From a bacterium (GTDB taxonomy: Bacteria > Sumerlaeota > Sumerlaeia > SLMS01), in the NCBI GenBank assembly GCA_030431385.1, contig JAUIJJ010000057.1:1-13509 (forward strand): 13,509 nucleotides of DNA, given 5' to 3'. Numbering within the stretch: the first letter of the stretch is position 1; each line of letters starts with the position of its first letter. The notes below the pieces were generated by a model. The model had not been told where the DNA came from, searched no databases, and saw only the letters and a program-made list of their open reading frames with translations. Both the position numbers and the translations under genes were made by a program. Shown here piece after piece: positions 809-13,509 of this stretch.

Positions 809-2665
809 CTACCAGTTGTCGAGATCGTGGCGAGCATCGACCTCGTCGCGGAAGGTCGACGGATCGAGCCTCCAGCGCATGAGCATTCTGGAGAGGCTTT
901 CGAGAGTCGGGCGCTGTGCCTCGACCTGCGCGGTGAGACCGCAGTCGGCAAGCGCCACCGAGGTCGCCGCGCTGATCGATGCGATTCCCACATCTGTCAG
1001 CAATCGCTTGAAAGTCGTGTCGCCCCACGCCGCTCTGGCCACCTCGACGCTGGATGCCGAGAAGAAAGCGACGCAATCGACCTCACCCTTGGTCAGCGCC
1101 TGACGCAGTTCCAGAAGGTTCAGCTTCGATGGCTGCTTTTCGTAGAGCGGAACATGCGTGACGTTCGCGCCTCGAATATGCAGCTCCTTGCTAAGTTCCG
1201 GCCGCGCGTCCGTTGACCCCAAGATCAGCACCCGATCTCCATTCATCCGCGCTTCGAACGATTCCATCAAGTTATCGTTGGTGAACGGCTCGCGAACGAC
1301 TTGTGCGCGGATGCCGTGATCTCTCAGTTGCGAGCGGGTCATCTGGCCAACGGCGATGACGCTGCATTGTTCGGGGATGAGCCGCAGGTCCAGCTCTGCT
1401 TCCCGAAGTGCTTTGAGGAAGATCTCGACGGAAGTTTCCGTGGTAAAGACGATGTGAGTTGCGAGGCGCAGATCGTCGCTCATCGCGTCGAGCACCTGCG
1501 GCAGGCCTGCCACAGGGCGGGTTTGTTCGAGAGGAAACGGCAGCACCTGCGCGCCAAGCTCGCGGTAGAATTGGCTCGTCTCGGCGTTGCGGCTTTCCGC
1601 CCGCGTGACGGCCAGCTTCAAACTGAACAGCGGTCGGTTTTCGAAGAGGTTGAGGTGTTCCTGAAGATTGACCGCATCGCCCACGATCAGCGTGCAGGGC
1701 GACTTTAGGTTCTCACGCCCAATCTCACGTGCCAGCTTGTCCACTGTCGAGACGACGGTTCTCTGATGAGGAGTGGCACCCTGAGAGATCGCGACGACCG
1801 GCTCGTGAGGAGACCGCCCGCCCTGAAGCAGTCCGTCTCTGATAGCATTGAGGCACGGGAGTGGACGCGTGAACACGAGCGTATCTGCCGCAGTGCAGGT
1901 CGCTTTCCAGTTCATCACGACCACGTCTGCGGGTTCCTCGCCGGTAAGGGGAAAGCGCTCGATCGCCCCGCCCAACGGCACACTGGTTTCACTCGAACGC
2001 CAAGTATCGATGCGCCCCATTGAGGTCTCGGACTTCTTCTTGCCGTGGTCCAACGTAGTCTCGGATTCCGCACCCCGGATCTGAAAGGTCGCCGAGGACT
2101 CTTTTCGAGACTTGCGAGAGCGGCGAATGACGACCCCGGGGCGGCGCGGTTCTTCGTACTTTTGCTCGGGTTTCACCACAGGCTCCATCCGAAGCGACCG
2201 CGGCCGCTCGCAAGAAACGAGGCCCTCGATGATGAGGACCTTCCCTGCGATGCCAGGCTGGAGGATCGGAACTCCTGCCGCGGCGGAGGCGGCAACGGTT
2301 ACGGGTAATCCAGGGACGACATCAAACTCGATCCCCAAAGCGCGCAAGTGCATCATTTCTCCCGCGCTGAACGATGCCGTGATAGCGTCGCCTTGGCGGA
2401 GGCGCACGACGCTCAGGCCACGGCGGCCACGCTCGACGAGTACGTCCTTGATCTCATCCGGAGTTTGCGGCCCGAGCCCACCGGGAAGCCCGGTGGGTAA
2501 TAGCTCAGCATCGGTACGACAGAGACTCAGCAGTTCCTCGCCCAACTCGGCGTCATAGAGGACTACCTTTGCCTCTTCGAGAGCGCGTCGACCACGCACC
2601 GTCATCAGCCCCGGATCGCCCGGGCCTGCTCCAACGAAAGTGACTTTGCCAGTTCGCTTCTTCAT
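809..2665 (-). CDS. cobA-hemD: Bifunctional uroporphyrinogen-III C-methyltransferase (SUMT, CobA/CysG-type) / uroporphyrinogen-III synthase (HemD) fusion.
   Basis: ATG start preceded by GAGG. The N-terminus has the SUMT signature TFVGAGPGDPGLMTVRG, followed by VVLYD, then VVRLRQGDA...GIEFDVVPGLPVTVAASAAAGVPI and TLIVGDAV. The C-terminal half (SLKLAVTRAE...IVFTTETSVEIF...VLILGSTDARPELS...VAFFSASSVE) matches the HemD fold pattern. The SUMT domain carries an approximately 80-aa K/R/S/E-rich insertion. 618 aa, with a TAG stop at 809-811. Confidence 0.88.
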   Translation of the reverse strand: MKKRTGKVTFVGAGPGDPGLMTVRGRRALEEAKVVLYDAELGEELLSLCRTDAELLPTGLPGGLGPQTPDEIKDVLVERGRRGLSVVRLRQGDAITASFSAGEMMHLRALGIEFDVVPGLPVTVAASAAAGVPILQPGIAGKVLIIEGLVSCERPRSLRMEPVVKPEQKYEEPRRPGVVIRRSRKSRKESSATFQIRGAESETTLDHGKKKSETSMGRIDTWRSSETSVPLGGAIERFPLTGEEPADVVVMNWKATCTAADTLVFTRPLPCLNAIRDGLLQGGRSPHEPVVAISQGATPHQRTVVSTVDKLAREIGRENLKSPCTLIVGDAVNLQEHLNLFENRPLFSLKLAVTRAESRNAETSQFYRELGAQVLPFPLEQTRPVAGLPQVLDAMSDDLRLATHIVFTTETSVEIFLKALREAELDLRLIPEQCSVIAVGQMTRSQLRDHGIRAQVVREPFTNDNLMESFEARMNGDRVLILGSTDARPELSKELHIRGANVTHVPLYEKQPSKLNLLELRQALTKGEVDCVAFFSASSVEVARAAWGDTTFKRLLTDVGIASISAATSVALADCGLTAQVEAQRPTLESLSRMLMRWRLDPSTFRDEVDARHDLDNW

Positions 2666-2785: not shown

Positions 2786-3640
2786 ATGGAAATCACCTCG
2801 ACCATTCTCATCGAACTTATCGCCCTCGGGTTCGTGGTGGGGATTTTGGCAGGTACCTTCGGCGTTGGAGGCGGATTCCTGATCACCCCGCTCATCGGGT
2901 CTATGTTGGGCCTTCCCTACACGCTCGCGGTCGGCAGTTCGCTCGCATCCATTATCGGCACGAGCCTAACCGGCATCCACAAACACTGGCGTATGGGGAA
3001 CATTCACTTCGATCTGATCTCAGCGATCGGCGGTGGGACGGTCGCAGGGACCCTGTTCGGCACAGCCATCCACAAGTGGTTACGGGAATTCCTCGTCGCC
3101 GATGGCGACAGCACGACCTTCGAACTCACCATGATCGCGCTCTACGCAATTTGTCTGACGGTCATCGCCATCGTGTTCCTTTTTCAGGCGCGCGCGAAAA
3201 AGTCCGAGCCAGCGCCCGCAGAAGGCGACAGAAAATCCCCGCCCCCGCTTCCAAAATTTGATGCACGATTCGTCGTCACGATGACGGGCATCGGACTTTC
3301 AATCGGAACCCTGAGCGGGCTACTGGGGCTGGGCGGAGGCATCTTGATTATGCCCGCCCTCGTCATCTTGCTGAAGTTTGATCAGCGGCTGGCAGTCGCC
3401 ACGAGCCTCGGCGCAGTCTTCCTCAGTGCCGTCACTGGAACATGGGGATACGCAATCGGCGGATTCGTCAGCCTACCGATTGCGTTGTCCATTCTGGTCG
3501 GTGGAATCGCCGGAGTCCAGGTCGGCGGGGTCATCTGTCAGCGAATCAGCGGCCAGCGATTCCGCAGCGCGTTCCTTATCGTCATCGTTGCGGTCATCGC
3601 ACTGCTCGCGTGGAAAGCCACCAGAATCCTGACCGCCTAG
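2786..3640 (+). CDS. TauE/SafE (DUF81) family sulfite/sulfonate exporter-type membrane permease.
   Basis: 284 aa, strongly hydrophobic. Two internally duplicated halves each carry the glycine-rich signature (GVGGGFLITP... and GLGGGILIMPAL...), separated by a charged loop (RAKKSEPAPAEGDRKSPPPLPKFD). ATG at 2786 and TAG at 3638-3640. Confidence 0.85.
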   Translation: MEITSTILIELIALGFVVGILAGTFGVGGGFLITPLIGSMLGLPYTLAVGSSLASIIGTSLTGIHKHWRMGNIHFDLISAIGGGTVAGTLFGTAIHKWLREFLVADGDSTTFELTMIALYAICLTVIAIVFLFQARAKKSEPAPAEGDRKSPPPLPKFDARFVVTMTGIGLSIGTLSGLLGLGGGILIMPALVILLKFDQRLAVATSLGAVFLSAVTGTWGYAIGGFVSLPIALSILVGGIAGVQVGGVICQRISGQRFRSAFLIVIVAVIALLAWKATRILTA

Positions 3641-3643
3641 CCG

Positions 3644-4510
3644 CTATCGGCTCTCAACCTGACGCGCCAGAATCTTGATCGCTTCCTTCTCCGCACCGTT
3701 CAACCGGATGATCCGAGTGGAGCCCCAGTTATCCTGAAGCGGGTCGAAAAAGAAAATCCCTGCCACTGCGTCCCAGAATTGAAGGGGATGAAACTTAACG
3801 TTGAGAGCGACTACGCCCACGTTTGCCTGCACACCGACGGCCCAATAGTCCCTCGCTCGCTGAAAAACCCAGTCGCCGGGTCGCTTCAGGCCGGTGCCGG
3901 CGTGATTCAGTGCATAGCCACGGCTCATCGCGCTCCGCCAGGCAACCATACTGCGAATCTCAATAGGCAGTATGTCCAGGAACTCCTCCACGTTCGCGCT
4001 GACGCTCGGGTCGCCACGATAGAACCCAACCATGAACTCGCCACCAGATGCCTGAGCACCAACGGCAACAGCTTCGGTGACCTGTGCCTTCACTCCGGCG
4101 CCGAAACACACGCCGACCTCGGCCGTGAGCGAATCAAAGATGTCGAATAGAACATTAGCCGGCCACAGAATGACGCGCTTCGCGATTCCGACATCGTCAT
4201 TTGCGACTCGCATCGCATAGTTAGAACCTGCGGCTGTCCGAGCACCAAGTCGCCAGAGGTGGGGTGCCTCCAAAAGCGCGGTCTTGCGAATCTCTTTCGC
4301 ATCTTGGTCCCCCGGTTCCGCATCCAGCAGAAACAAGCTCAGGTAAAGCGCCTTGTCGTACTCTTTCGCGTTCAGGTGGTTGTGCGCTGAATCACGCAGA
4401 AACTCTCGAGTATCGTTGTAGCGACCGGGATCAAAGGTGGTGCATCCAACCAATGTGCCGAAACAGGCCAGCAAAACACCAAAACTCAAGACCAGACGAA
4501 CTGTCCGCAT
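3644..4510 (-). CDS. Hypothetical lipoprotein.
   Basis: The preferred ATG start at 4510 gives MRTVRLVLSFGVLLACFGTLVGC, an SPase II signal with lipobox LVGC. The ORF track instead starts at a TTG at 4519. The mature part is 260 aa with no recognisable motif. The stop at 3644-3646 lies 3 nt from the convergent tauE-like stop. Confidence 0.7.
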   Translation of the reverse strand: MRTVRLVLSFGVLLACFGTLVGCTTFDPGRYNDTREFLRDSAHNHLNAKEYDKALYLSLFLLDAEPGDQDAKEIRKTALLEAPHLWRLGARTAAGSNYAMRVANDDVGIAKRVILWPANVLFDIFDSLTAEVGVCFGAGVKAQVTEAVAVGAQASGGEFMVGFYRGDPSVSANVEEFLDILPIEIRSMVAWRSAMSRGYALNHAGTGLKRPGDWVFQRARDYWAVGVQANVGVVALNVKFHPLQFWDAVAGIFFFDPLQDNWGSTRIIRLNGAEKEAIKILARQVESR

Positions 4511-4521
4511 CAAATTCAAGA

Positions 4522-5073
4522 TTACTCGTCCTTTTCAGATGACTCATGAGCGTCGGGACGAAGAAGTTCCTCAATGGAGACCTCCGCCGTAGGCCCGTAA
4601 ATCGGCGTGCATCTCTCACCCATGATCCTCAGATACAGTTGCAACTGGGCGCGGTGGTGAATCCAATGACCGTGGTGCAACTCGATGATCTTCACACCCG
4701 GGAACAGACCAAAATCCAGAAGCTCAACGTCCGATGCAAGCTGGGTGACGGAGAGATTGCGCAGTCCCTCGAAAAACTCCGAGAAGAACGCATCGCATTG
4801 TTGAACCAATCCATCCGTATCGCCAGGTATCTCGAACTCAGGAGGCTCCGCTGTGATGCTTTCATCCCCCTGCAACAATTTCAGAAACCAGGTCCCGGCA
4901 AAGTAGAGGTGAAGCGCCATTTCGGCGAATGGCATCGAGAGCTCATGCGGCTTCCATCCAAGCTTATCCGCAGGACACGAGGCGATCACGGACACGGTCA
5001 GTTCGTGCTCGGAGGGGAACTCGTGCAGCCATCGGCTGCGCTGTTCATGAGCATATAGTTGTGATACTGGCAT
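4522..5073 (-). CDS. DinB_2/YfiT-like metal-dependent enzyme (DinB superfamily).
   Basis: The C-terminal motif ELHHGHWIHHRAQLQLYL matches the DinB-superfamily HxxHHRxQ metal-binding signature. Size (about 183 aa from ATG 5073) is typical of the family. The ORF-track start at 5121 is a TTG with no SD, so the ATG at 5073 (MPVSQLYAHE...) is preferred. The TAA stop at 4522-4524 lies 11 nt upstream of the lipoprotein ATG. Confidence 0.6.
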   Translation of the reverse strand: MPVSQLYAHEQRSRWLHEFPSEHELTVSVIASCPADKLGWKPHELSMPFAEMALHLYFAGTWFLKLLQGDESITAEPPEFEIPGDTDGLVQQCDAFFSEFFEGLRNLSVTQLASDVELLDFGLFPGVKIIELHHGHWIHHRAQLQLYLRIMGERCTPIYGPTAEVSIEELLRPDAHESSEKDE

Positions 5074-5138
5074 AGCCAACTCGCGTCGAGAATTGTCTGA
5101 AGAGAAGTACCCGACACACAACAGAGGCTAGCAAAAAG

Positions 5139-8100
5139 TCAGGAACCCGATTGGTACTGTTCCAGCAGCGACTTAGCCTCGGCGCAACCGTGATCCAGTG
5201 AGCGGAGAATAGTCCCCAACTCATTCTTGGTCAGGCTCGAACCCTCGCGGCTTTCAATGACCATCAACACGTTCTCGCCGCTCTGGCTTCGATCAATTCC
5301 AATGCTCACCGGCAAGATCTTCGTGTTTAAATCAAGAAGCTCCTCATAGAACTTGCCGTTTAGCTCGTGATTCACATTTCCCACCCGCGCCTGAACGTAG
5401 AATCGGTCCTCGAGGATTCGGAAGTAGGTCGGAGTCTTGTTCTCTCGGTTGATTCTAAACAGCGTGCGCTCGACTTCTTCGACTGCATACCCCATCGATT
5501 CCAGAAAACGTCGCATGGAACCGGCGGCGTGAAACTCGCCTTCCTTCGGCGACCAATCAACCTCGACTTCCGGCTGTGTCTCGGACTGCGAAGGCGGGCC
5601 AGTCGCTACACGATGCTCACCGCCAGCGACCTTCAAATCGCCGAAGATTTCCTTGAGAGCCTCGATCGCTTCGAGAGTGAAGTGCGCGGAGACGGGGCGT
5701 GCCATCGTGCCCTCGGACACGGCGTGAGAAGGGGCCGCCAATTTGTCGCGAATCTCCGCCAGCACGATCTTCAGTTGATCAATCGTTTCCGGTGCAAACT
5801 CCGCCCGTATCGCGGTCGAAGCATCCTGTCGAGATTCCGTGATCGCCCTTGCGAGTTCACTAAATGACTCGCGCAGGTGAACCAGCGTTTCTGGTTCGAA
5901 TACCGCCTTAACATCTCGCGATGAGTCGTCAGAAGAACCACCCACCAGACCGCGCAGCCCGCTGCCGATGTCCTCGCGCAACCTCGTGATTCCATCACCG
6001 AGATCGCCCAGCATCGTCACGGCCTGAGTCATTGAATCACTCGAATCCATCCCTCTGAATTTCTGATTTCGACAGAATGTATCCTTAATGTCCTTCCACC
6101 GCGCAAGTTCCTCCTCGGTTGCGAAATCAAACATCTCGCGGAACTTGAGCATGTTCGCCTCTGCACCGGTGGTGAGCGTCTGCGATTCGCCCTCATAGTG
6201 AGCAAGAATCATCGAGCGCAATTCCTCATCATTCATGATGGGAAGTACCTTCTCCGCCAACTTGTTCATGTTACGATAGGATCCCTGCAACTTGAACGGA
6301 GGCTCGGTACGATAATCATCCGCCTGCGCGGCAGATGCGATGTACTCGGCGTTGACGCGCAAGATAACATCCCGAACAACGAGCATCTTCTTAAGCACAG
6401 AAACGATCTCGTTTAGCTCCTCTGTCGAGTAGTTTCCTTCGAGTTCAATTCCCTCCCGGTCGCCAGAATTCGCCAATCTGAGGATCGAATAGATGTCCTT
6501 GCTGGCCCGACTCGCGACGCGAGCCAACACGGCATTCGAGGTCAACGAGTTCTCGATATAGCTCATTTCGAAGGCCTCGGATTGATCCCCAATGATGTCG
6601 CCGAGATTGTACGTATCTGCGCGGTTTGCCAACATATCGGGGATCTGGAACTTCTCGCCGCTTTCGGTGTACGGATTGCCCGCCATCACAACACAGACCT
6701 TCTTACCGCGCAGGTCATAGGTGCGCGTGCGGCCGCGCCAGACACCCTCGATCTTCCGTTGAGCGTCACACAATGAAATGAACTTCTGTAGGAACTCGGG
6801 ATTACAGTGCTGAATGTCGTCCAGGTAAATCATCACATTGTCGCCCATCTCGAGCGACAGATTGAGTTTCTCTAATTCCTCTTTGGCCGTTGCGTTTGGA
6901 GCTTCCGAAGGATCGAGTGACGTGACCCGATGACCAATCGCGGGGCCGTTAATCTTCATAAACACAATGCCGAGGCGATTCGCGACATATTCCATCAAGG
7001 TCGTCTTGCCGTAGCCCGGCGGCGACACGAGGAGGAGCATACCCATGCGATCGGTACGTTTGTCCGCGCCCGCTGCGCCCATCTGCTTGGCGAGGTTATC
7101 GCCAAGCATCGGGAGGTAAACCTCGTCGATCAATTTGTTGCGAACAAAGGAAGTCAGGATGCGGGGCTTGAACTCATCCAAGCGCAGATTGTCGCGATAC
7201 TCCTCAGCCGCGTCCTTCTTGGCCAGAACATAACTTTCGAACAGCGGAACTGATTCGTTTGTAAAGCGATAGAGCCTTTCCATATACTCGGGATAGTTAA
7301 GCCGGTAAACACCATCAACGATCAGGTCATGACTTCCAGTCATCGCTTCGATATCTCGGACAACGGTAACGTTCAGCACATGAGAAGGATCAAACGAATC
7401 CGCGAAGAACATCGCCGCGACCTCGTCGGCATATTGGCGCAGCTCTGATTCTTCAGAGTTCTCAATGTATCCATTCACCCAGGTTCGGATAAGGTCAAAC
7501 CGGCCGACATCGTCGTCCGCCATTTCATCGAGAATCCCGCGTAGCTCAAGATAGCTCTTTGATTCATCGAGGTACTTGCGAATGCCCTGAAGCAACTGCG
7601 CCGATTCAGGACTCGTCACAATCCGCACGCTTCCAGTTAACTCGTGAAACAGATATTCGGCGGCTTCGGGAATGAGATCTTCATCGAAGAGTTCTGTCTC
7701 GATAATGAACGCCCTGAGAGAATCGCCTAAATCTTCGATATGATCAGCAAAATCGGTGCGATGCGGAACGACGCGCAACGCCGCGCCGAGCCCTCTTAAC
7801 CGCGCAGAAAGCCGCTTCTTCGTCGCAGAATCGGCGAAGGTTTCCCACCAGCAACGAGCGCAGGCTCGCGCGATGGAGCGGTACCTCAACAAGTCGACAG
7901 TCTGATTGAGATCAATGAGAGCTGACACAATACGCGCCGCGTCGTGATCATGAACGCCCTTCACATACCCTTCGCTAAAACGCGGCCCCATGAACTTTTG
8001 GACCTCTGCCGAAACTTCTTCAACCGTCGCGGTGCTGAGCTCAGATATAGACCGAATTCTACCAGCCTCGACCTCTGTCATGAACAAGTATGCTAGATAC

Positions 8101-10844
8101 TCAGCGCGATACACGTCCGCATTCTCTGATACGTACTCCTGATTCCAAACGGACTTCGTAGAAAGGAGCTTCTCATCAGTCGCTTTCTCAAAGAAGTTCG
8201 TGCCGGTAATGTGAAATGTGAGCTCACCATTTCGCATGACAGATGTTAAATCCAGCGGCTGTGTGTTTACATTGAAACGATGCTTTCCGAACTTGATAAT
8301 GTTCTCGCCATCGACGAAAAGGTCCTGGCGGTCTCTCAGTTGGCGAACCGCGTCTTCTTTGATAGACTTGAGCTTACTCCCGATCTCGTCGGCCTTAACG
8401 CTATCGCCCATTTCAATGAGCTGTTCAACGATTCCTCGCACCTTTTCAATCATCAGATCAGATGCGAAGTATCCGTTAATGTCCGAGACCGCCTTCAGAT
8501 TCCGCGCACGGTTGTCGATCCCCTTGAGAATTCGATCCGCTGCGCTGTGAAGCGCAACCGCCCGCTTGTTGCGCGCCTCTATGAGTGCGAGCTTTTTGGA
8601 TTCGAACGCGTTCGCTGCCTCTTCACGCTTCTCCGCCAACTGGATGATGAAGGCGTCGAAATCGGTGAACCGCCCCTCAAGTTCTTCAATCTGAACCAGC
8701 AATTTGTTCAGGTACTCATCGCACTTTTCAGGCGTGTCACAAATGTCCAAATAGTTGATGACACCCTGATTAAGGAGCTTCATTTGCGATCCGAACTCGG
8801 CCACAGCTTCGGTCCCCTGAAGGTCCTTCTTCCTCCGCGCCAGTTTAGAACGCACCTGATTCACAACGGTGAAGATCGAGGAGATGTTATCAATGATCTG
8901 GGTTGTCTTGGTCGAGTCATCAATCTTTAGGTTACTGACGATCTCAATTAGAAGTTCCAGCTCTGACGAAACCTTGGCGACGGATTCTTCCAAATCCTTC
9001 GCTTCGGTGACTTTATCCAATTCTGCAATTCTGGAATCCAGCTGATGGACCTTCGATTGGTAAACATCGAGCGCATCGGGCCGCAGGAGAAACTCGACGC
9101 AGCCTTTCGAGAGTTCCGAAGACTGCTCGGAAACTCTCTTTTCGAGCGCGTCGATCTCCTCACCATTCGCATAACGCAAATCGCGAAGTGAGATGATCTC
9201 GCCACGCAGCTTACGCAACTCCGCGAGGGACTCCACGTAGTGATCGACAGACTCGAAAGTGCGCCGCGCGTTCTGCCCGACAAGCGAATCCGTTTGCAGG
9301 GAAACCTCGCGGACGCGTTCTAAAGTTTGCTTCCGAATCCGACTGACCTTCTCGAATTCTTCAATCGCAGCGCCGGCGGTTTCTCTAATCTCACCAAGGG
9401 TTTTCTTGAGGTTCCCCGTCCTCTCCTCCCCTACCCAGAAGTAGGAATCCATGACATCTTGGGTCTGCCGCACGATATCGATGTAAAGCCCCTCGTATGG
9501 GTCAGGTCGGTGGATGAGCCTTAGAACTTCGTGACACTCGGCCATCGCCTTTACGATGTCTTTGTTTCCGATCTTGTATAGATAGGATTCGGTCGAGGCT
9601 GCGGGAACGTGGTTAGGGCCGACGTAGGGTGTTTGCCAAACTTGGACGGTATGATGCTTTTGCGGCTCCGGATCGGCCGTGAAGTAGACCAACTCTCCAT
9701 CATCAAAGAAGGAATAACCACCGCAAATGATAGGTGTCTCAACCCGCTTCTCGATGAGGTTATAGCTCAGAATAATGTATGTACCATTCTCCCGATTGTA
9801 GAAAACATACAAGTAGTCCTCGCCATTCGAGGACTGCATTCGACGTTCGAAGAGCATCTCGCACAGCCCGTGCTCGAACTGTTTGTACTCGCCAGAGACT
9901 AGATAGTACCCGCTGCTGAAGATCAGACCGTGCGAATCGGGAAGCAGCACACACGAGTCCTCGATGTCGTCAATCCGCCTGGCAGTTTTCGTCTTTTCAT
10001 TATATACTATATACCGAAACTCGTCTTCCTGATAGGGTCGTATCTTGAGGAGAATGATCGGGCCGATAATTGCATAGTAGACTTCTGCATCGTCGAGAAT
10101 CTGATCGGGGTTTTCGACCGCTTCCTCGTAAATCCCCGCGCCGGTATCGGTATTGTCCTCAACCTTGATTGTCAAGTCACCGCCCACCGTCTCTACAAAC
10201 AGCCGGTCGTCGATGGAGATATGCGGGTGCGCGCCGGCGCGGTGCATGTCTCGATGCGTGCGCTTCCATCTAAACTCATGCTGCTCGGGATATCGGTATT
10301 CGTGGTCGCTTCGGTTGTCCAAATAGTGCAGCTCGTCGCCTTCGATTGCCCACTTGAAGGTCTTCACATCGCTGACGCGCTTCCCCACTCGAAACACCAT
10401 GTAGAGATGCGGACCAGTAGAAAAGAACTTCGCAAACTGAGTCTCTTTGTAGTACTTGTAGAGGTTCGCAAAGTCCTCCTCGAAGCTACCATTAGAAATC
10501 AGCTTCAACGTATCCGGGTGAAACTTATTGTTCTCATCAAATGTATAGACAGCAAACACGTCTGAGATTTCGACGGTTGACTTGAGGCCAAACCTGACAT
10601 TGTACCCAAACAAGAATCTGCGTCCGACAGGTATCATGTCCCTGGCGACGCAGTTATTCTCCGTAGTGATTCGGTCGCTATCGATGAGCTTGAACTCGAT
10701 AGACCCAAAGACGGACTTCCGCTCCTCATTCAGTTTGTTCACACGCGCCAACAGCTCCTCGCCGTGCGTGTTGAGCCGGCCGCGGATTATCTCATAAGTC
10801 CCGCCCTCAAGAACCTGATCCTGCTTTTGTTGTTCCTCAGCCAT
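5139..10844 (-). CDS. Giant (1901 aa) multidomain protein with one AAA_5 (MoxR/dynein-related) ATPase module, a long coiled-coil region and a C-terminal YbjN/secretion-chaperone-like domain. Family unknown.
   Basis: Uninterrupted 5.7-kb ORF. ATG at 10844 is preceded by GAAGGG; TGA stop at 5139-5141. Walker A is LLLVSPPGYGKTTL (nt about 6999-7019). Walker B is VMIYLDDIQHCNPEFLQKFISLCDAQ (about 6810-6836). Sensor-1 is CVVMAGNPYTE and an Arg finger sits in IPDMLANRADTY; together these are the hallmark AAA_5 pattern (hhhhDE ... atmNP ... R). Residues about 480-860 are heptad-like and E/K/R/L-rich (coiled coil). Residues about 1-470 are rich in Y/F/W beta-strand-like segments. Residues about 1770-1900 resemble the YbjN fold. 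Confidence 0.85.
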   Translation of the reverse strand: MAEEQQKQDQVLEGGTYEIIRGRLNTHGEELLARVNKLNEERKSVFGSIEFKLIDSDRITTENNCVARDMIPVGRRFLFGYNVRFGLKSTVEISDVFAVYTFDENNKFHPDTLKLISNGSFEEDFANLYKYYKETQFAKFFSTGPHLYMVFRVGKRVSDVKTFKWAIEGDELHYLDNRSDHEYRYPEQHEFRWKRTHRDMHRAGAHPHISIDDRLFVETVGGDLTIKVEDNTDTGAGIYEEAVENPDQILDDAEVYYAIIGPIILLKIRPYQEDEFRYIVYNEKTKTARRIDDIEDSCVLLPDSHGLIFSSGYYLVSGEYKQFEHGLCEMLFERRMQSSNGEDYLYVFYNRENGTYIILSYNLIEKRVETPIICGGYSFFDDGELVYFTADPEPQKHHTVQVWQTPYVGPNHVPAASTESYLYKIGNKDIVKAMAECHEVLRLIHRPDPYEGLYIDIVRQTQDVMDSYFWVGEERTGNLKKTLGEIRETAGAAIEEFEKVSRIRKQTLERVREVSLQTDSLVGQNARRTFESVDHYVESLAELRKLRGEIISLRDLRYANGEEIDALEKRVSEQSSELSKGCVEFLLRPDALDVYQSKVHQLDSRIAELDKVTEAKDLEESVAKVSSELELLIEIVSNLKIDDSTKTTQIIDNISSIFTVVNQVRSKLARRKKDLQGTEAVAEFGSQMKLLNQGVINYLDICDTPEKCDEYLNKLLVQIEELEGRFTDFDAFIIQLAEKREEAANAFESKKLALIEARNKRAVALHSAADRILKGIDNRARNLKAVSDINGYFASDLMIEKVRGIVEQLIEMGDSVKADEIGSKLKSIKEDAVRQLRDRQDLFVDGENIIKFGKHRFNVNTQPLDLTSVMRNGELTFHITGTNFFEKATDEKLLSTKSVWNQEYVSENADVYRAEYLAYLFMTEVEAGRIRSISELSTATVEEVSAEVQKFMGPRFSEGYVKGVHDHDAARIVSALIDLNQTVDLLRYRSIARACARCWWETFADSATKKRLSARLRGLGAALRVVPHRTDFADHIEDLGDSLRAFIIETELFDEDLIPEAAEYLFHELTGSVRIVTSPESAQLLQGIRKYLDESKSYLELRGILDEMADDDVGRFDLIRTWVNGYIENSEESELRQYADEVAAMFFADSFDPSHVLNVTVVRDIEAMTGSHDLIVDGVYRLNYPEYMERLYRFTNESVPLFESYVLAKKDAAEEYRDNLRLDEFKPRILTSFVRNKLIDEVYLPMLGDNLAKQMGAAGADKRTDRMGMLLLVSPPGYGKTTLMEYVANRLGIVFMKINGPAIGHRVTSLDPSEAPNATAKEELEKLNLSLEMGDNVMIYLDDIQHCNPEFLQKFISLCDAQRKIEGVWRGRTRTYDLRGKKVCVVMAGNPYTESGEKFQIPDMLANRADTYNLGDIIGDQSEAFEMSYIENSLTSNAVLARVASRASKDIYSILRLANSGDREGIELEGNYSTEELNEIVSVLKKMLVVRDVILRVNAEYIASAAQADDYRTEPPFKLQGSYRNMNKLAEKVLPIMNDEELRSMILAHYEGESQTLTTGAEANMLKFREMFDFATEEELARWKDIKDTFCRNQKFRGMDSSDSMTQAVTMLGDLGDGITRLREDIGSGLRGLVGGSSDDSSRDVKAVFEPETLVHLRESFSELARAITESRQDASTAIRAEFAPETIDQLKIVLAEIRDKLAAPSHAVSEGTMARPVSAHFTLEAIEALKEIFGDLKVAGGEHRVATGPPSQSETQPEVEVDWSPKEGEFHAAGSMRRFLESMGYAVEEVERTLFRINRENKTPTYFRILEDRFYVQARVGNVNHELNGKFYEELLDLNTKILPVSIGIDRSQSGENVLMVIESREGSSLTKNELGTILRSLDHGCAEAKSLLEQYQSGS
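6585..7067 (-). other. AAA_5 ATPase module of the giant protein (residues about 1260-1420).
   Basis: Walker A GYGKTT, Walker B YLDD, AGNP sensor and Arg, read directly from the translation. The reverse complement of 6999-7040 encodes MLLLVSPPGYGKTT. Confidence 0.8.
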
Positions 10845-10942: not shown

Positions 10943-13018
10943 CTATTTGTCTTCGATGAACGATGAAGCCGGTGCGCCGCCGAACCCGGCAGACTTCACG
11001 GCTTCCAGTATCGACTGGAGTTTGCCCTGTTGTTCCGGGCTGCTGCTTTGCGACATCAACTGCATGATCAGCGCGGTGACCGACAAATTCTTGATATCCT
11101 CGCTGCTGACTCCGAATTGATCCACCAGCTTCGCGATCTCTTCTTTGAAGTTTCCAGGCTCACCGTTGAAAAAGGTCTCCTTCACATCGCGCAGCACTGC
11201 CGAGTTATCGACCAATCGGTCTACTGACTTACCGTTTGCAATCGCACCCACGAGGCGGTCGAAGAACTTCTGATCGCCACCGACAATGTCGATCTTCGCA
11301 TTCATCAGGCCCTCGCGAATGACGCTTGCCTGAGCCTCCGCGATGTCACGCTGTACATTGATCTGCGCGAGTTGCACGTCCCGATGGATGTTCATGCGGA
11401 TTTTGTATTCTTCGTGTTCCTTGCCAACGCCATCGAGCTTCTTCATGGCCTCGGCCTTTTCTTCGATGCCCTGTGCTTCGGCGCTCATCTTCTTGTGAAG
11501 TACGTCTGCATCAACCTCGCCCTGCTTCTGCGCGGCGTCCGCGTTCGCGACTTTGCCCTTCGCCTCGGCTGATGCTTTGAGCTCGATGACCTTTGCTTCG
11601 GCGGCACCTTCCTTCTCGACTGCCGACGCGCGCGCCTCGAGTACACGAACTTCCGATAGACCATGAATGGCTTCTTCTTCGGCTCGCGCTTCGGCGATGG
11701 TCTTCATCGCGACGGCGCGTTTCTCGGCAGCCAGCTGCTCGGCCTGGGCTTCGATCTGGACCTGTTCCGCAGTATGTCCGGCTGCAGTCTTCCTGGCTTC
11801 GGCGCCCTTCACTTCCATGACCAACTTTTCTTCAGCTTCCTTTTCCGCGTTAGTGATCGCGACCAACTTCTCACGATCAGCGCCAGCTCTCGCGCGTGTA
11901 TCCTTAATGCGCTCCTCTTCTTCGACCACTTCTCGCTCTACAGCGACACGTTCGCGGATGACGGTCTGAATGTTCTTGCGCTCTTCTTCGACTGCTTTGT
12001 CGCGTTCGATCTGTGCGAGTGAAACGATCTTCTCGCGTTCGGTCACTTCCAACTGACGGTCGCGTTCGATCCGTTCAGTCTCGATGGCGTCGGTACGTTC
12101 TTTAGCTTTAGTTGCGACGATGATCTGGCGATCCTTGTTTTCATTGGCGACGCTGATCTCTTCGTCAGCAATGATCCGAGCCTGTTCCCACTTCTGCCGC
12201 TCTTCGTGCTGAATCTTGGCAGCTTCGGCCTGTTCGCGTGCGGTGACTGATGCGATCTCGCGCTTCTGCTTCTCTTCCTTCTCGGCGAGCTGTCGGTCGA
12301 GTTCAAGAATCGCCTCGCGCGCCTCGACGTCCTGCTGGCGAATCGTCTTCTCTTTATCACGTTCGATCTTGTTAGATAACACTCGCTGCGCGGCAGTCAG
12401 ATCGGTGATCTTTTTGATACCTTCAGCATCGAGGATATTGTTCGGATTCAAGGTCTCGATCGGCGTTTGTTCGAGGTAGTCAATCGCCGCATCGTCGAGC
12501 ACGTAACCATTCAGATCGGTACCGATAATCTGTAGAATCTCGTGCTTGAATTGCTCGCGTTCAGTATATAGTTTTGTAAACTCAAAACCCTTACCGACAG
12601 TCTTCAGCGCCTCGGAGAATTTGGCGTCAAAGAAGTCGACGAGCGCCTGCGGACTCGATGCGCGTTTACAACCAATGCACTGCGCGACTTTGAGCACGTC
12701 TTGCTCAGTCTTGTTTACGCGAACGAAGAAGGCCACCTTGATGTCTCCGCGAATGTTGTCCTCGCAGATCAGGCCATCTTTCCCCGATCGCTCGATCTCG
12801 ACCCTCTTGACGCTGATGTCCATCAGCTCCAGACGGTGGAAGATCGGTATAACAAAGAACGACGTAAAGCTGACGACCGTTCCCCCGCGCCCTGTTCGAA
12901 TGAGCGCCTGGCCTTGCTCTGCCTTGACCAGAAACTTCGTAAAGAGCGCCAACGCGCCCACGACAAAGATCAGGCCAACTACCAAAATTCCGATGATAAT
13001 GATGCCCGTTTGTGGCAT
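10943..13018 (-). CDS. Flotillin-family SPFH/band-7 protein (YqiK/FloT-like), 691 aa.
   Basis: N-terminal TM helix (IIIIGILVVGLIFVVGALALF), then an SPFH domain, then an approximately 290-aa E/A/K/R-rich coiled coil (EERQKWEQARIIADEE..., AEKEAEEKLVMEVKGAEARK...) and a C-terminal flotillin domain. ATG at 13018 is preceded by GAGGAAG 7 nt upstream. It lies 11 nt downstream of the nfeD-like stop, indicating translational coupling. Confidence 0.9.
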   Translation of the reverse strand: MPQTGIIIIGILVVGLIFVVGALALFTKFLVKAEQGQALIRTGRGGTVVSFTSFFVIPIFHRLELMDISVKRVEIERSGKDGLICEDNIRGDIKVAFFVRVNKTEQDVLKVAQCIGCKRASSPQALVDFFDAKFSEALKTVGKGFEFTKLYTEREQFKHEILQIIGTDLNGYVLDDAAIDYLEQTPIETLNPNNILDAEGIKKITDLTAAQRVLSNKIERDKEKTIRQQDVEAREAILELDRQLAEKEEKQKREIASVTAREQAEAAKIQHEERQKWEQARIIADEEISVANENKDRQIIVATKAKERTDAIETERIERDRQLEVTEREKIVSLAQIERDKAVEEERKNIQTVIRERVAVEREVVEEEERIKDTRARAGADREKLVAITNAEKEAEEKLVMEVKGAEARKTAAGHTAEQVQIEAQAEQLAAEKRAVAMKTIAEARAEEEAIHGLSEVRVLEARASAVEKEGAAEAKVIELKASAEAKGKVANADAAQKQGEVDADVLHKKMSAEAQGIEEKAEAMKKLDGVGKEHEEYKIRMNIHRDVQLAQINVQRDIAEAQASVIREGLMNAKIDIVGGDQKFFDRLVGAIANGKSVDRLVDNSAVLRDVKETFFNGEPGNFKEEIAKLVDQFGVSSEDIKNLSVTALIMQLMSQSSSPEQQGKLQSILEAVKSAGFGGAPASSFIEDK

Positions 13019-13029
13019 GGCTCTTCCTC

Positions 13030-13509
13030 TCAGTTTATTGTTTCAACGAGGTAGATTTCTTTCTCCTCGTCGTAGTGGACAATCACAACTTCCTCACCCT
13101 TGGGGAGGGCGATTCCCTCCCGACAGCGTACGGTCAGCAGCAGCGACGCACCCTTTGTCGTCATCTCCGCCTGACCGTGGCGGTCGCTCGATGCCGGTGT
13201 CAGCAATGTACACGTCCTGCCGATGACCTGCATCGCCTCGCGCTCTTCTGCCTGAGCCTTTGCGATGACCTTGGCAAACGGGGCCGTCGCGCCCTTCGTA
13301 ATCAAGATCGAAATGATCCAGTTGATCAGGAACAGAATCGCCGCGCGGATTCCGGAGAACTCAGGATTCAAATGCAGTGTTGTAAGCATCGTGAGTGACC
13401 ACATACTGATCACAAACAAACTAATGATGATGGTGAGCGGAACGTATTGCGCGTTGAGGAAAATCAGCCCCGTGCCCACGATCCCGTAGGGGCTCGCGTG
13501 AACCGCCTG
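13030..13509 (-). CDS. NfeD/YqiJ-like membrane protein with C-terminal OB-fold. Classic partner of SPFH proteins. 5'-truncated by the window edge.
   Basis: TM segments (LTIIISLFVISMWSLTMLTTL, AAILFLINWIISILI) are followed by the soluble beta-rich C-terminal segment GASLLLTVRCREGIALPKGEEVVIVHYDEEKEIYLVE, typical of NfeD OB domains. The ORF-track start at 13479 is a GTG, and the frame stays open to nt 13509 (QAVHASPYGIV...), so the real start is probably upstream of the window. TGA stop at 13030-13032. Confidence 0.8.
   Translation of the reverse strand, partial: QAVHASPYGIVGTGLIFLNAQYVPLTIIISLFVISMWSLTMLTTLHLNPEFSGIRAAILFLINWIISILITKGATAPFAKVIAKAQAEEREAMQVIGRTCTLLTPASSDRHGQAEMTTKGASLLLTVRCREGIALPKGEEVVIVHYDEEKEIYLVETIN

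Follow-up and report, generated by a model that had tools for sequence, protein, structure and literature searches.

What is the role of the 1901-residue ATPase encoded on the minus strand at positions 5139..10844 of contig JAUIJJ010000057.1, a 13,509-nucleotide stretch of DNA from a Sumerlaeota bacterium (hereafter the window), and with which partners does it act? The question touches on what powers the remodelling of bacterial flotillin and ESCRT-III-like assemblies. We are highly confident that the protein is a giant cytoplasmic ATPase of DUF3686-DUF7902-AAA+ architecture, encoded by the last gene of a YqiJ-flotillin-ATPase operon. It represents a rare fused form within a family that is known and widespread but has never been studied by experiment: genomic coupling to flotillin and to a YqiJ-like protein is obligatory, coupling to PspA and to a CesT-like protein is facultative, and one gene fusion joins the CesT-like protein to the ATPase. 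Both the family and the operon are already on record in Pfam and in one comparative-genomics paper, and the present account is not a first sighting. An earlier reading of this DNA, made from its letters and translations (hereafter the sequence-only reading), did not include the conserved flotillin/YqiJ neighbourhood, which is the most informative evidence on the protein.

The open reading frame (ORF) is complete and begins with ATG, as judged from the ORF list and translation, the Pfam matches and the homologs. The frame, and the peptides and motifs that the sequence-only reading quoted from it, all lie where that reading had put them: GYGKTT at residues 1277-1282, YLDD at 1340-1343, AGNP at 1388-1391, NRAD at 1407-1410, TLFRINRENK at 1794-1803 and the aromatic beta segments at 344-410. 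Its statement that the protein fits no nameable family does not survive, with DUF3686, DUF7902 and an AAA domain assigned by Pfam and more than 5,700 colinear homologs found. A word-indexed search returned 5,760 proteins at E<=1e-5, colinear with the query and drawn from many phyla, the best 120 of which measure 1,640-1,916 residues and share 51-59% identity with the query across 85-100% of its length. According to precomputed Pfam annotation, all of the listed homologs carry DUF3686 and DUF7902 and nearly all have an AAA-type match. An exhaustive search with the propeller alone gave 753 representatives at 50% identity, and among the best 150 of these every long protein (~1,500-2,040 residues) has DUF3686 at its N-terminus; on this evidence the DUF3686 propeller appears to be confined to this architecture. 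In the alignment, conservation across phyla is maintained at ~55% up to residue ~1600 and then collapses.

The family is catalogued but not well characterised, and because of this the sequence-only reading, which had staked itself on the protein not falling whole into a well-characterised family, is only half overturned. Most of the named homologs bear the NCBI product name 'DNA repair ATPase', with which the Pfam description of DUF3686 agrees; we found no support for this label, and it is almost certainly misleading. No solved structure exists for a family member, since searches of the PDB with the sequence and with a 20-sequence profile stop at P-loop and coiled-coil noise, and NCBIfam gave only RuvB and Cdc48 P-loop matches to the 1901-residue protein, both far below threshold. 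A full-length homolog, 58% identical, also occurs in a eukaryotic proteome set (P0050; EukProt g33011.t1, 1711 residues), and Pfam lists DUF3686 in eukaryotes as well; contamination or horizontal transfer could account for the EukProt protein.

The neighbourhood of the gene was compared across 80 loci taken from GTDB species representatives; the lineages sampled were Planctomycetota, Bacteroidota, Verrucomicrobiota, Desulfobacterota, Clostridia, Omnitrophota and Kiritimatiellota. The operon runs from a YqiJ/NfeD-like gene through a YqiK-type flotillin to the ATPase. In the window the flotillin (691 residues; 10943..13018, minus strand) has a membrane segment at its N-terminus, followed by an SPFH-like region and a helical region rich in E/A/K, and closes with a conserved extension at the C-terminus. 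Of the 65 loci in which more than 2.5 kb precedes the ATPase gene, 62 have a flotillin upstream of it in the same orientation, with identities mostly of 45-60%. The window flotillin has no Pfam match even at E<=10 and no NCBIfam match, and its profile finds only QmcA in the PDB (E=4.5e-4); comparison with E. coli YqiK gives a BLASTP match at E=1e-47 (30% identity over 465 residues) and an hhalign probability of 100%. Further upstream, the translation of 13030..13509 (minus strand) corresponds to a YqiJ/NfeD-like membrane protein with a C-terminal beta-rich domain, truncated by the contig end. Orthologs of this protein are encoded in 52 of the 61 loci with enough upstream sequence (54/80 overall), and the ortholog at locus L001 weakly matches Pfam YqiJ_N (E=1.2e-4) and E. 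coli YqiJ (E=7e-6). Beyond YqiJ, flotillin, PspA, CesT and a repressor, the 80 loci show no conserved neighbours. The 13.5-kb contig contains no separate pspA or CesT gene. A paper on SPFH evolution and another on P. aeruginosa SPFH proteins make no mention of an ATPase partner.

Two features of the flotillin were observed in passing. The conserved stretch of ~130 residues at its C-terminus (after ~560) finds no alignment with YqiK and could be the site at which the ATPase docks. The E/A/K-rich helical region coincides with an AT skew of -0.31 to -0.38 at window positions 11001-12500, and in other loci it yields long spurious antisense ORFs (cluster 'c17': L039, L055, L063, L072).

An extended form of the operon is found in Bacteroidota, where ORF clustering gave the order CesT_Tir_1 - PspA - YqiJ-like - flotillin - ATPase, with an HTH_3 + Peptidase_S24 repressor encoded divergently and small unrelated inserts sometimes placed between flotillin and ATPase. 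PspA is encoded in 18 of the 80 loci, all of them Bacteroidota, the repressor in 16 and a free-standing CesT_Tir_1 protein in 13. The last is a protein of 131 residues that matches its Pfam family over the full length (E=4e-54, 182.5 bits) and also matches YbjN and CesT, and the PspA of the operon is recognised by Pfam at E=4e-41. The repressor, seen at L009, L015, L016, L018, L025, L027, L034, L035, L041, L045-L047, L052, L065, L071 and L073, is of the LexA/CI-like self-cleaving type, suggesting stress-induced derepression of the operon.

The operon and its "beta-propeller + coiled-coil + AAA+ ATPase" were already described, from genomics alone, by Ravi et al. (mSystems 2024, PMC11237479), who propose a chaperone-like role in membrane dynamics and report that abbreviated operons without the CesT/Tir-PspA pair are more widely distributed. 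The context string given there for Dokdonia donghaensis (Table S3) corresponds gene for gene to the Bacteroidota loci described above. No experiment on the operon or the ATPase is reported there or in the other literature searched.

The architecture of the ATPase was examined in AlphaFold models of residues 1-880 (48-sequence alignment, mean predicted local distance difference test score (pLDDT) of 83) and residues 861-1901 (mean pLDDT of 79). The DUF3686 domain occupies residues 30-469 (9438..10757, minus strand) and is supported by the Pfam match (PF12458, positions 1-448 of 448, E=1.4e-189), by Foldseek and by invariant columns. In the model an N-terminal helix (residues 13-46) precedes a 6-7-bladed beta-propeller with ~25 strands within residues 52-404 (pLDDT mostly 85-95), and Foldseek against the PDB matched the N-terminal region to the WD40 domain of DCAF1 (E=1.5e-5), to the six-bladed CyRPA and to the propeller of prolyl oligopeptidase. 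The sequence-only reading had proposed a beta-propeller or beta-sandwich here, and of the two it is the propeller that model and structure matches bear out. One propeller loop, residues 221-250 (window 10095-10184, minus strand; VETVGGDLTIKVEDNTDTGAGIYEEAVENPDQILDDAE), has a pLDDT below 50 yet is almost invariant across phyla, keeping G222, D223, T225, K227, E229, T232, G235, G237, E241, V243, Q248, L250, D251 and D252. Such a conserved, flexible element of the propeller probably acts as a binding or insertion loop.

The propeller is followed by a helical arm (residues 421-842; 8319..9584, minus strand), modelled as helices of 14-58 residues (pLDDT ~85-90) and including DUF7902 at residues 590-673 (nt 8826-9077, minus strand; PF25472, E=3.7e-26). 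The heptad-register score over residues 420-860 places 8.7% of windows above the 99th percentile of shuffles. While the all-helical, heptad-enriched nature of this region agrees with the coiled-coil stalk described in the sequence-only reading, a single continuous two-stranded stalk was not borne out, and the region is a helical arm with coiled-coil character rather than a proven single long stalk.

Profile, AlphaFold and Foldseek analysis upheld the four domains of the sequence-only reading, which had left residues 860-1260 blank. What precedes the ATPase module is modelled as a small beta unit (residues ~849-887) and an all-alpha domain (residues 913-1148, pLDDT >90), together encoded at 7401..8300 (minus strand) and seen across the two models; residues ~849-1148 match nothing in Pfam and no sequence in the PDB.

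The AAA+ module and its lid (residues ~1260-1460; 6465..7067, minus strand) are of the AAA_5/MoxR-like type by Pfam, motifs, invariance and strand order in the model. Over residues 1270-1395 Pfam reports AAA at 29.2 bits and AAA_5 (PF07728, positions 2-127 of 139) at 26.8 bits against a cut-off of 22, both above cut-off. Walker A is SPPGYGKTT (residues 1274-1282; nt 6999-7025, minus strand) and Walker B is VMIYLDD (residues 1337-1343; within nt 6816-6839, minus strand), with N1390 as sensor-1 and R1408 as the candidate arginine finger; in an alignment of 20 homologs from different phyla all four are invariant. The one AAA_5 module with lid and intact motifs of the sequence-only reading is thus upheld. 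Walker B reads hhhhDD rather than the canonical hhhhDE, with both aspartates invariant in the family. A beta-hairpin (residues 1364-1377) lies ahead of sensor-1 in the model. The nearest structures are CbbQ, NorQ, RuvB and MCM, with the MoxR remodellers CbbQ and NorQ named as the closest. After the lid, a modelled helical domain (residues 1474-1595; 6060..6425, minus strand), within the part conserved to ~1600, closes the cross-phylum conserved portion of the protein. No transmembrane segment is present in the 1901-residue protein (highest Kyte-Doolittle 19-residue mean 1.24), and Pfam finds no nuclease, helicase, DNA-binding, protease or VWA domain in it. Because VWA, nuclease, protease and transmembrane segments are all missing, the sequence-only reading was right to set aside RavA/MoxR-VWA, McrBC, BREX and FtsH-like proteins.

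What sets the window protein apart is its C-terminus. A helical linker of low confidence (residues ~1600-1765; 5550..6047, minus strand; pLDDT 30-55), which varies among homologs, leads into a CesT/YbjN-fold domain (residues 1766-1898; 5151..5549, minus strand) of alpha-beta4-alpha-beta2-alpha topology (pLDDT ~85). This is the alpha-beta-alpha chaperone fold of the CesT/YbjN/type-III chaperone superfamily, and the YbjN or type-III-chaperone likeness guessed in the sequence-only reading held in profile and structure tests alike. The best structural match is the DUF2170/YjfI family, identified by Ravi et al. (PMC11237479) as the CesT-like neighbour of the PspA paralog YjfJ. When a profile of five fused domains was run against 1,223 ORFs, free-standing CesT_Tir_1 proteins were the top non-self matches, colinear and with E from 1e-3; the reverse profile, made from 13 free-standing CesT_Tir_1 proteins, scores the window C-terminus poorly (-0.5 bits). 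By profile comparison, the fused domain and the free-standing CesT_Tir_1 protein encoded in the Bacteroidota operons are homologs.

The fusion is a feature of the window's clade and occurs in 5 of the 120 closest homologs (P0001, which is the window's own protein, P0002, P0010, P0019 and P0074) and in none of the 80 GTDB loci (0/80). On the contigs of the three fused homologs that were examined, flotillin lies upstream, and neither pspA nor a stand-alone CesT gene occurs within 8-10 kb. Type-III secretion genes are absent from the window and from the related loci. The operon description of Ravi et al. (PMC11237479) does not mention a fusion of the CesT-like protein to the ATPase. Compared by eye, the tails of the homologs are modular (P0007, P0012, P0023 and P0101, the last at L001 10001-15721) and comprise a helical motif, ankyrin repeats or almost nothing: most planctomycete members end in the conserved helical motif K[IV]PR.IL.VL..QF.LM..W..P, one Desulfobacterales member has an ankyrin-repeat tail and Bacteroidota members are almost tailless. 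As a separate observation, the linker at residues ~1640-1740 (window ~5640-5940, minus strand) contains three 'xFxPE[TA]..L' repeats (AVFEPETLVHLRESFSELA, AEFAPETIDQLKIVLAEIR and AHFTLEAIEALKEIFGDLK) within short, low-confidence helices, and homologs have repeats like these in their tails, such as GFTPEAVQEIVEALRNLGP, of which P0023 has three copies; the repeats could be docking motifs.

How might such a protein work? In the organisation and repair of bacterial membranes, flotillin scaffolds and PspA/ESCRT-III polymers have a central part, and to our knowledge no dedicated energy-consuming remodeller of flotillin or PspA polymers is known in bacteria. An AAA+ protein of 1,600-1,900 residues that is ~55% identical in at least seven bacterial lineages and stands nearly always beside flotillin is a strong candidate remodeller. 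Our best reading, a tentative one, is that the ATPase uses ATP to remodel flotillin/PspA assemblies beneath the membrane, and that the CesT-like domain serves it as an integral client adaptor. The single MoxR-like AAA+ module would assemble into a ring, as AAA+ proteins generally do, and the propeller and helical arm would tether this ring to the flotillin/YqiJ scaffold on its cytoplasmic side. Carried by a flexible linker, the CesT-like domain would hold an extended client segment, as type-III chaperones do, the most likely client being a protein of the PspA family whose gene lies elsewhere in the genome. Hydrolysis of ATP would then drive the remodelling or disassembly of flotillin assemblies, PspA assemblies or both during membrane stress or repair, in a role analogous to that of Vps4 on ESCRT-III or of type-III chaperones that pass substrates to their ATPase. 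The fusion, which physically ties the CesT-like partner to the ATPase, supplies a concrete client-delivery hypothesis and a natural single-chain construct for biochemistry.

PspA of B. subtilis is described as requiring an SPFH protein to reach the membrane (PMC8581546), and a 2025 review (PMC7619361) states that bacterial ESCRT-III seems to have no Vps4-like regulator. It is conceivable, and in our estimate rather unlikely, that the present family is the missing ATP-driven regulator of PspA and flotillin assemblies, having evolved separately, out of a MoxR-like ATPase, into a functional counterpart of Vps4. If this were true, the fusion would be direct genomic evidence that a CesT/YjfI-type PspA partner passes its client to the ATPase, and the ankyrin and helical-motif tails found elsewhere would be alternative client adaptors.

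Several points weigh against ATP-driven remodelling with a CesT-like adaptor. The mechanism is inferred from gene neighbourhood, one fusion and fold analogies. PspA occurs in only the 18/80 Bacteroidota loci noted above and is absent from the window, and because of this the obligate partner is flotillin, not PspA. Since Walker B is DD and not DE, hydrolysis could be slow or could serve as a regulatory switch. The helical arm could function in oligomerisation instead of tethering. The C-terminal domain scores 26.1 bits (E=9.3e-6) against Pfam CesT_Tir_1 (PF22550), 0.9 bit short of the gathering score of 27, and profile-profile comparison ties it modestly to the free-standing proteins (hhalign E=3.7e-4, probability 36%). 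Finally, the CesT-like adaptor is not general, because most homologs carry other tails, with the helical motif or ankyrin repeats.

The same operon could also be read in terms of membrane-protein quality control, with the ring extracting or unfolding clients corralled by flotillin, in the manner of HflK/C-FtsH or prohibitin/m-AAA without the protease, and acting neither on the scaffold nor on PspA. The near-universal linkage to an SPFH/flotillin gene and an NfeD-like gene agrees with such a role, as do the pairing of SPFH cages with AAA+ proteases, which is established biology, and the binding of unfolded polypeptide segments by the CesT fold in the matched structures. We nevertheless consider it doubtful: the protein has no protease domain or transmembrane anchor and the conserved operon no proteolytic partner, MoxR-like AAA+ proteins are mostly remodellers and not threading unfoldases, and the association of the CesT-like module with partners of the PspA/YjfJ type suggests scaffold proteins as the clients. 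The variable tails bear on a different proposal, in which a large ATPase would sense infection by way of its propeller or adaptor domains and work together with a membrane effector as an anti-phage or abortive-infection module. Giant multidomain ATPases with variable C-terminal adaptors, as seen here, are typical of conflict systems, and a LexA/CI-like repressor is encoded divergently in Bacteroidota. However, across phyla the core keeps ~55% identity and its synteny, among ordinary housekeeping neighbours and outside the context of a defence island, and it comes with no domain of an effector nuclease, pore toxin or NADase. PADLOC gives the ATPase only a non-significant P-loop match to mad8 (E=0.0082, 13.7 bits) and the flotillin none; for want of a meaningful PADLOC match a defence role was rejected, and we regard it as improbable.

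The database label raises the prospect of a true DNA-repair ATPase. Besides the Pfam description of DUF3686 and the NCBI product names, this could draw on the weak RuvB matches, on the S24 (LexA-like) repressor of the Bacteroidota loci and on the DinB-fold gene that lies 17 bp downstream of the ATPase in the window (4522-5121, minus strand; DinB_2/DinB, E ~1e-6) and also follows it in two other loci (L002 and L052). The DinB linkage extends to no other locus among the 80 (3/81 with the window), however, and the NCBIfam RuvB match reaches 25.2 bits against a cut-off of 282 and covers only the P-loop segment, residues 1258-1305. The conserved partners are membrane proteins, and our literature search found no paper mentioning DUF3686 or PF12458. 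With no full-length match to a repair-ATPase model and no DNA-binding, nuclease or helicase domain, the DNA-repair reading was rejected and appears scarcely credible. The resemblance to a miniature dynein- or midasin-like mechanoenzyme drawn in the sequence-only reading fares little better, as six concatenated AAA modules, a stalk within the ring and, for midasin, a MIDAS tail are not found here; a classical MoxR-VWA maturation chaperone was likewise rejected, there being no VWA domain in the protein and no VWA/MIDAS partner among the conserved neighbours of the 80 loci. We consider either identity very improbable.

The remaining genes of the window add little to this picture. Downstream of the ATPase and the DinB-fold gene lie a lipoprotein-like ORF of 291 residues with no database match (3644-4519, minus strand), a TauE/SafE-family exporter (2786-3640, plus strand) and a fused uroporphyrinogen-III methyltransferase/synthase, CobA-HemD (809-2665, minus strand). 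None of the four is a conserved partner, and the last three are unrelated to the operon. A promoter and terminator scan of the window gave counts near those of shuffles and no site in the short gaps flanking the ATPase gene, and Rfam and tRNA scans of the window were empty.

Comparison with known systems places the window protein most closely with the family described by Ravi et al. (PMC11237479). It shares with that family the domain order from residue 1 to ~1600, with 51-59% identity to the closest 120 members, and the placement of its gene after those for a YqiK-type flotillin and a YqiJ-like protein, and the window corresponds to what those authors term an 'abbreviated operon'. It differs in that the CesT-like module is fused to the ATPase, whereas in their description it is a separate gene beside pspA, and in that the window has no pspA. 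Compared with the MoxR AAA+ remodellers CbbQ, NorQ and RavA, an assignment whose margin over other AAA+ clades is small, the window protein lacks a VWA/MIDAS partner and has in addition ~1,260 N-terminal residues, a 300-residue tail and a Walker B ending in DD.

PspA is a bacterial homolog of ESCRT-III. The likeness to Vps4 is that of an AAA+ ATPase whose gene is coupled, in Bacteroidota, with that of PspA, a member of the ESCRT-III superfamily, and which is equipped with a dedicated client-binding module; homology is limited to the AAA+ fold, and the window protein differs in having no MIT domain, a core that is MoxR-like instead of belonging to the classical clade, and flotillin as its constant partner. 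HflK/C-FtsH and prohibitin/m-AAA resemble the present operon in the genetic pairing of an SPFH scaffold with an AAA+ ATPase and in the NfeD-like protein, whereas the window ATPase has neither protease domain nor membrane anchor and its flotillin is of the YqiK type, with the bulk predicted to be cytoplasmic. Finally, in contrast to the class I type-III chaperones, YbjN and YjfI (DUF2170), which are small stand-alone dimers, the CesT-like module described here is a domain of a 1901-residue ATPase, encoded with no type-III secretion genes nearby.

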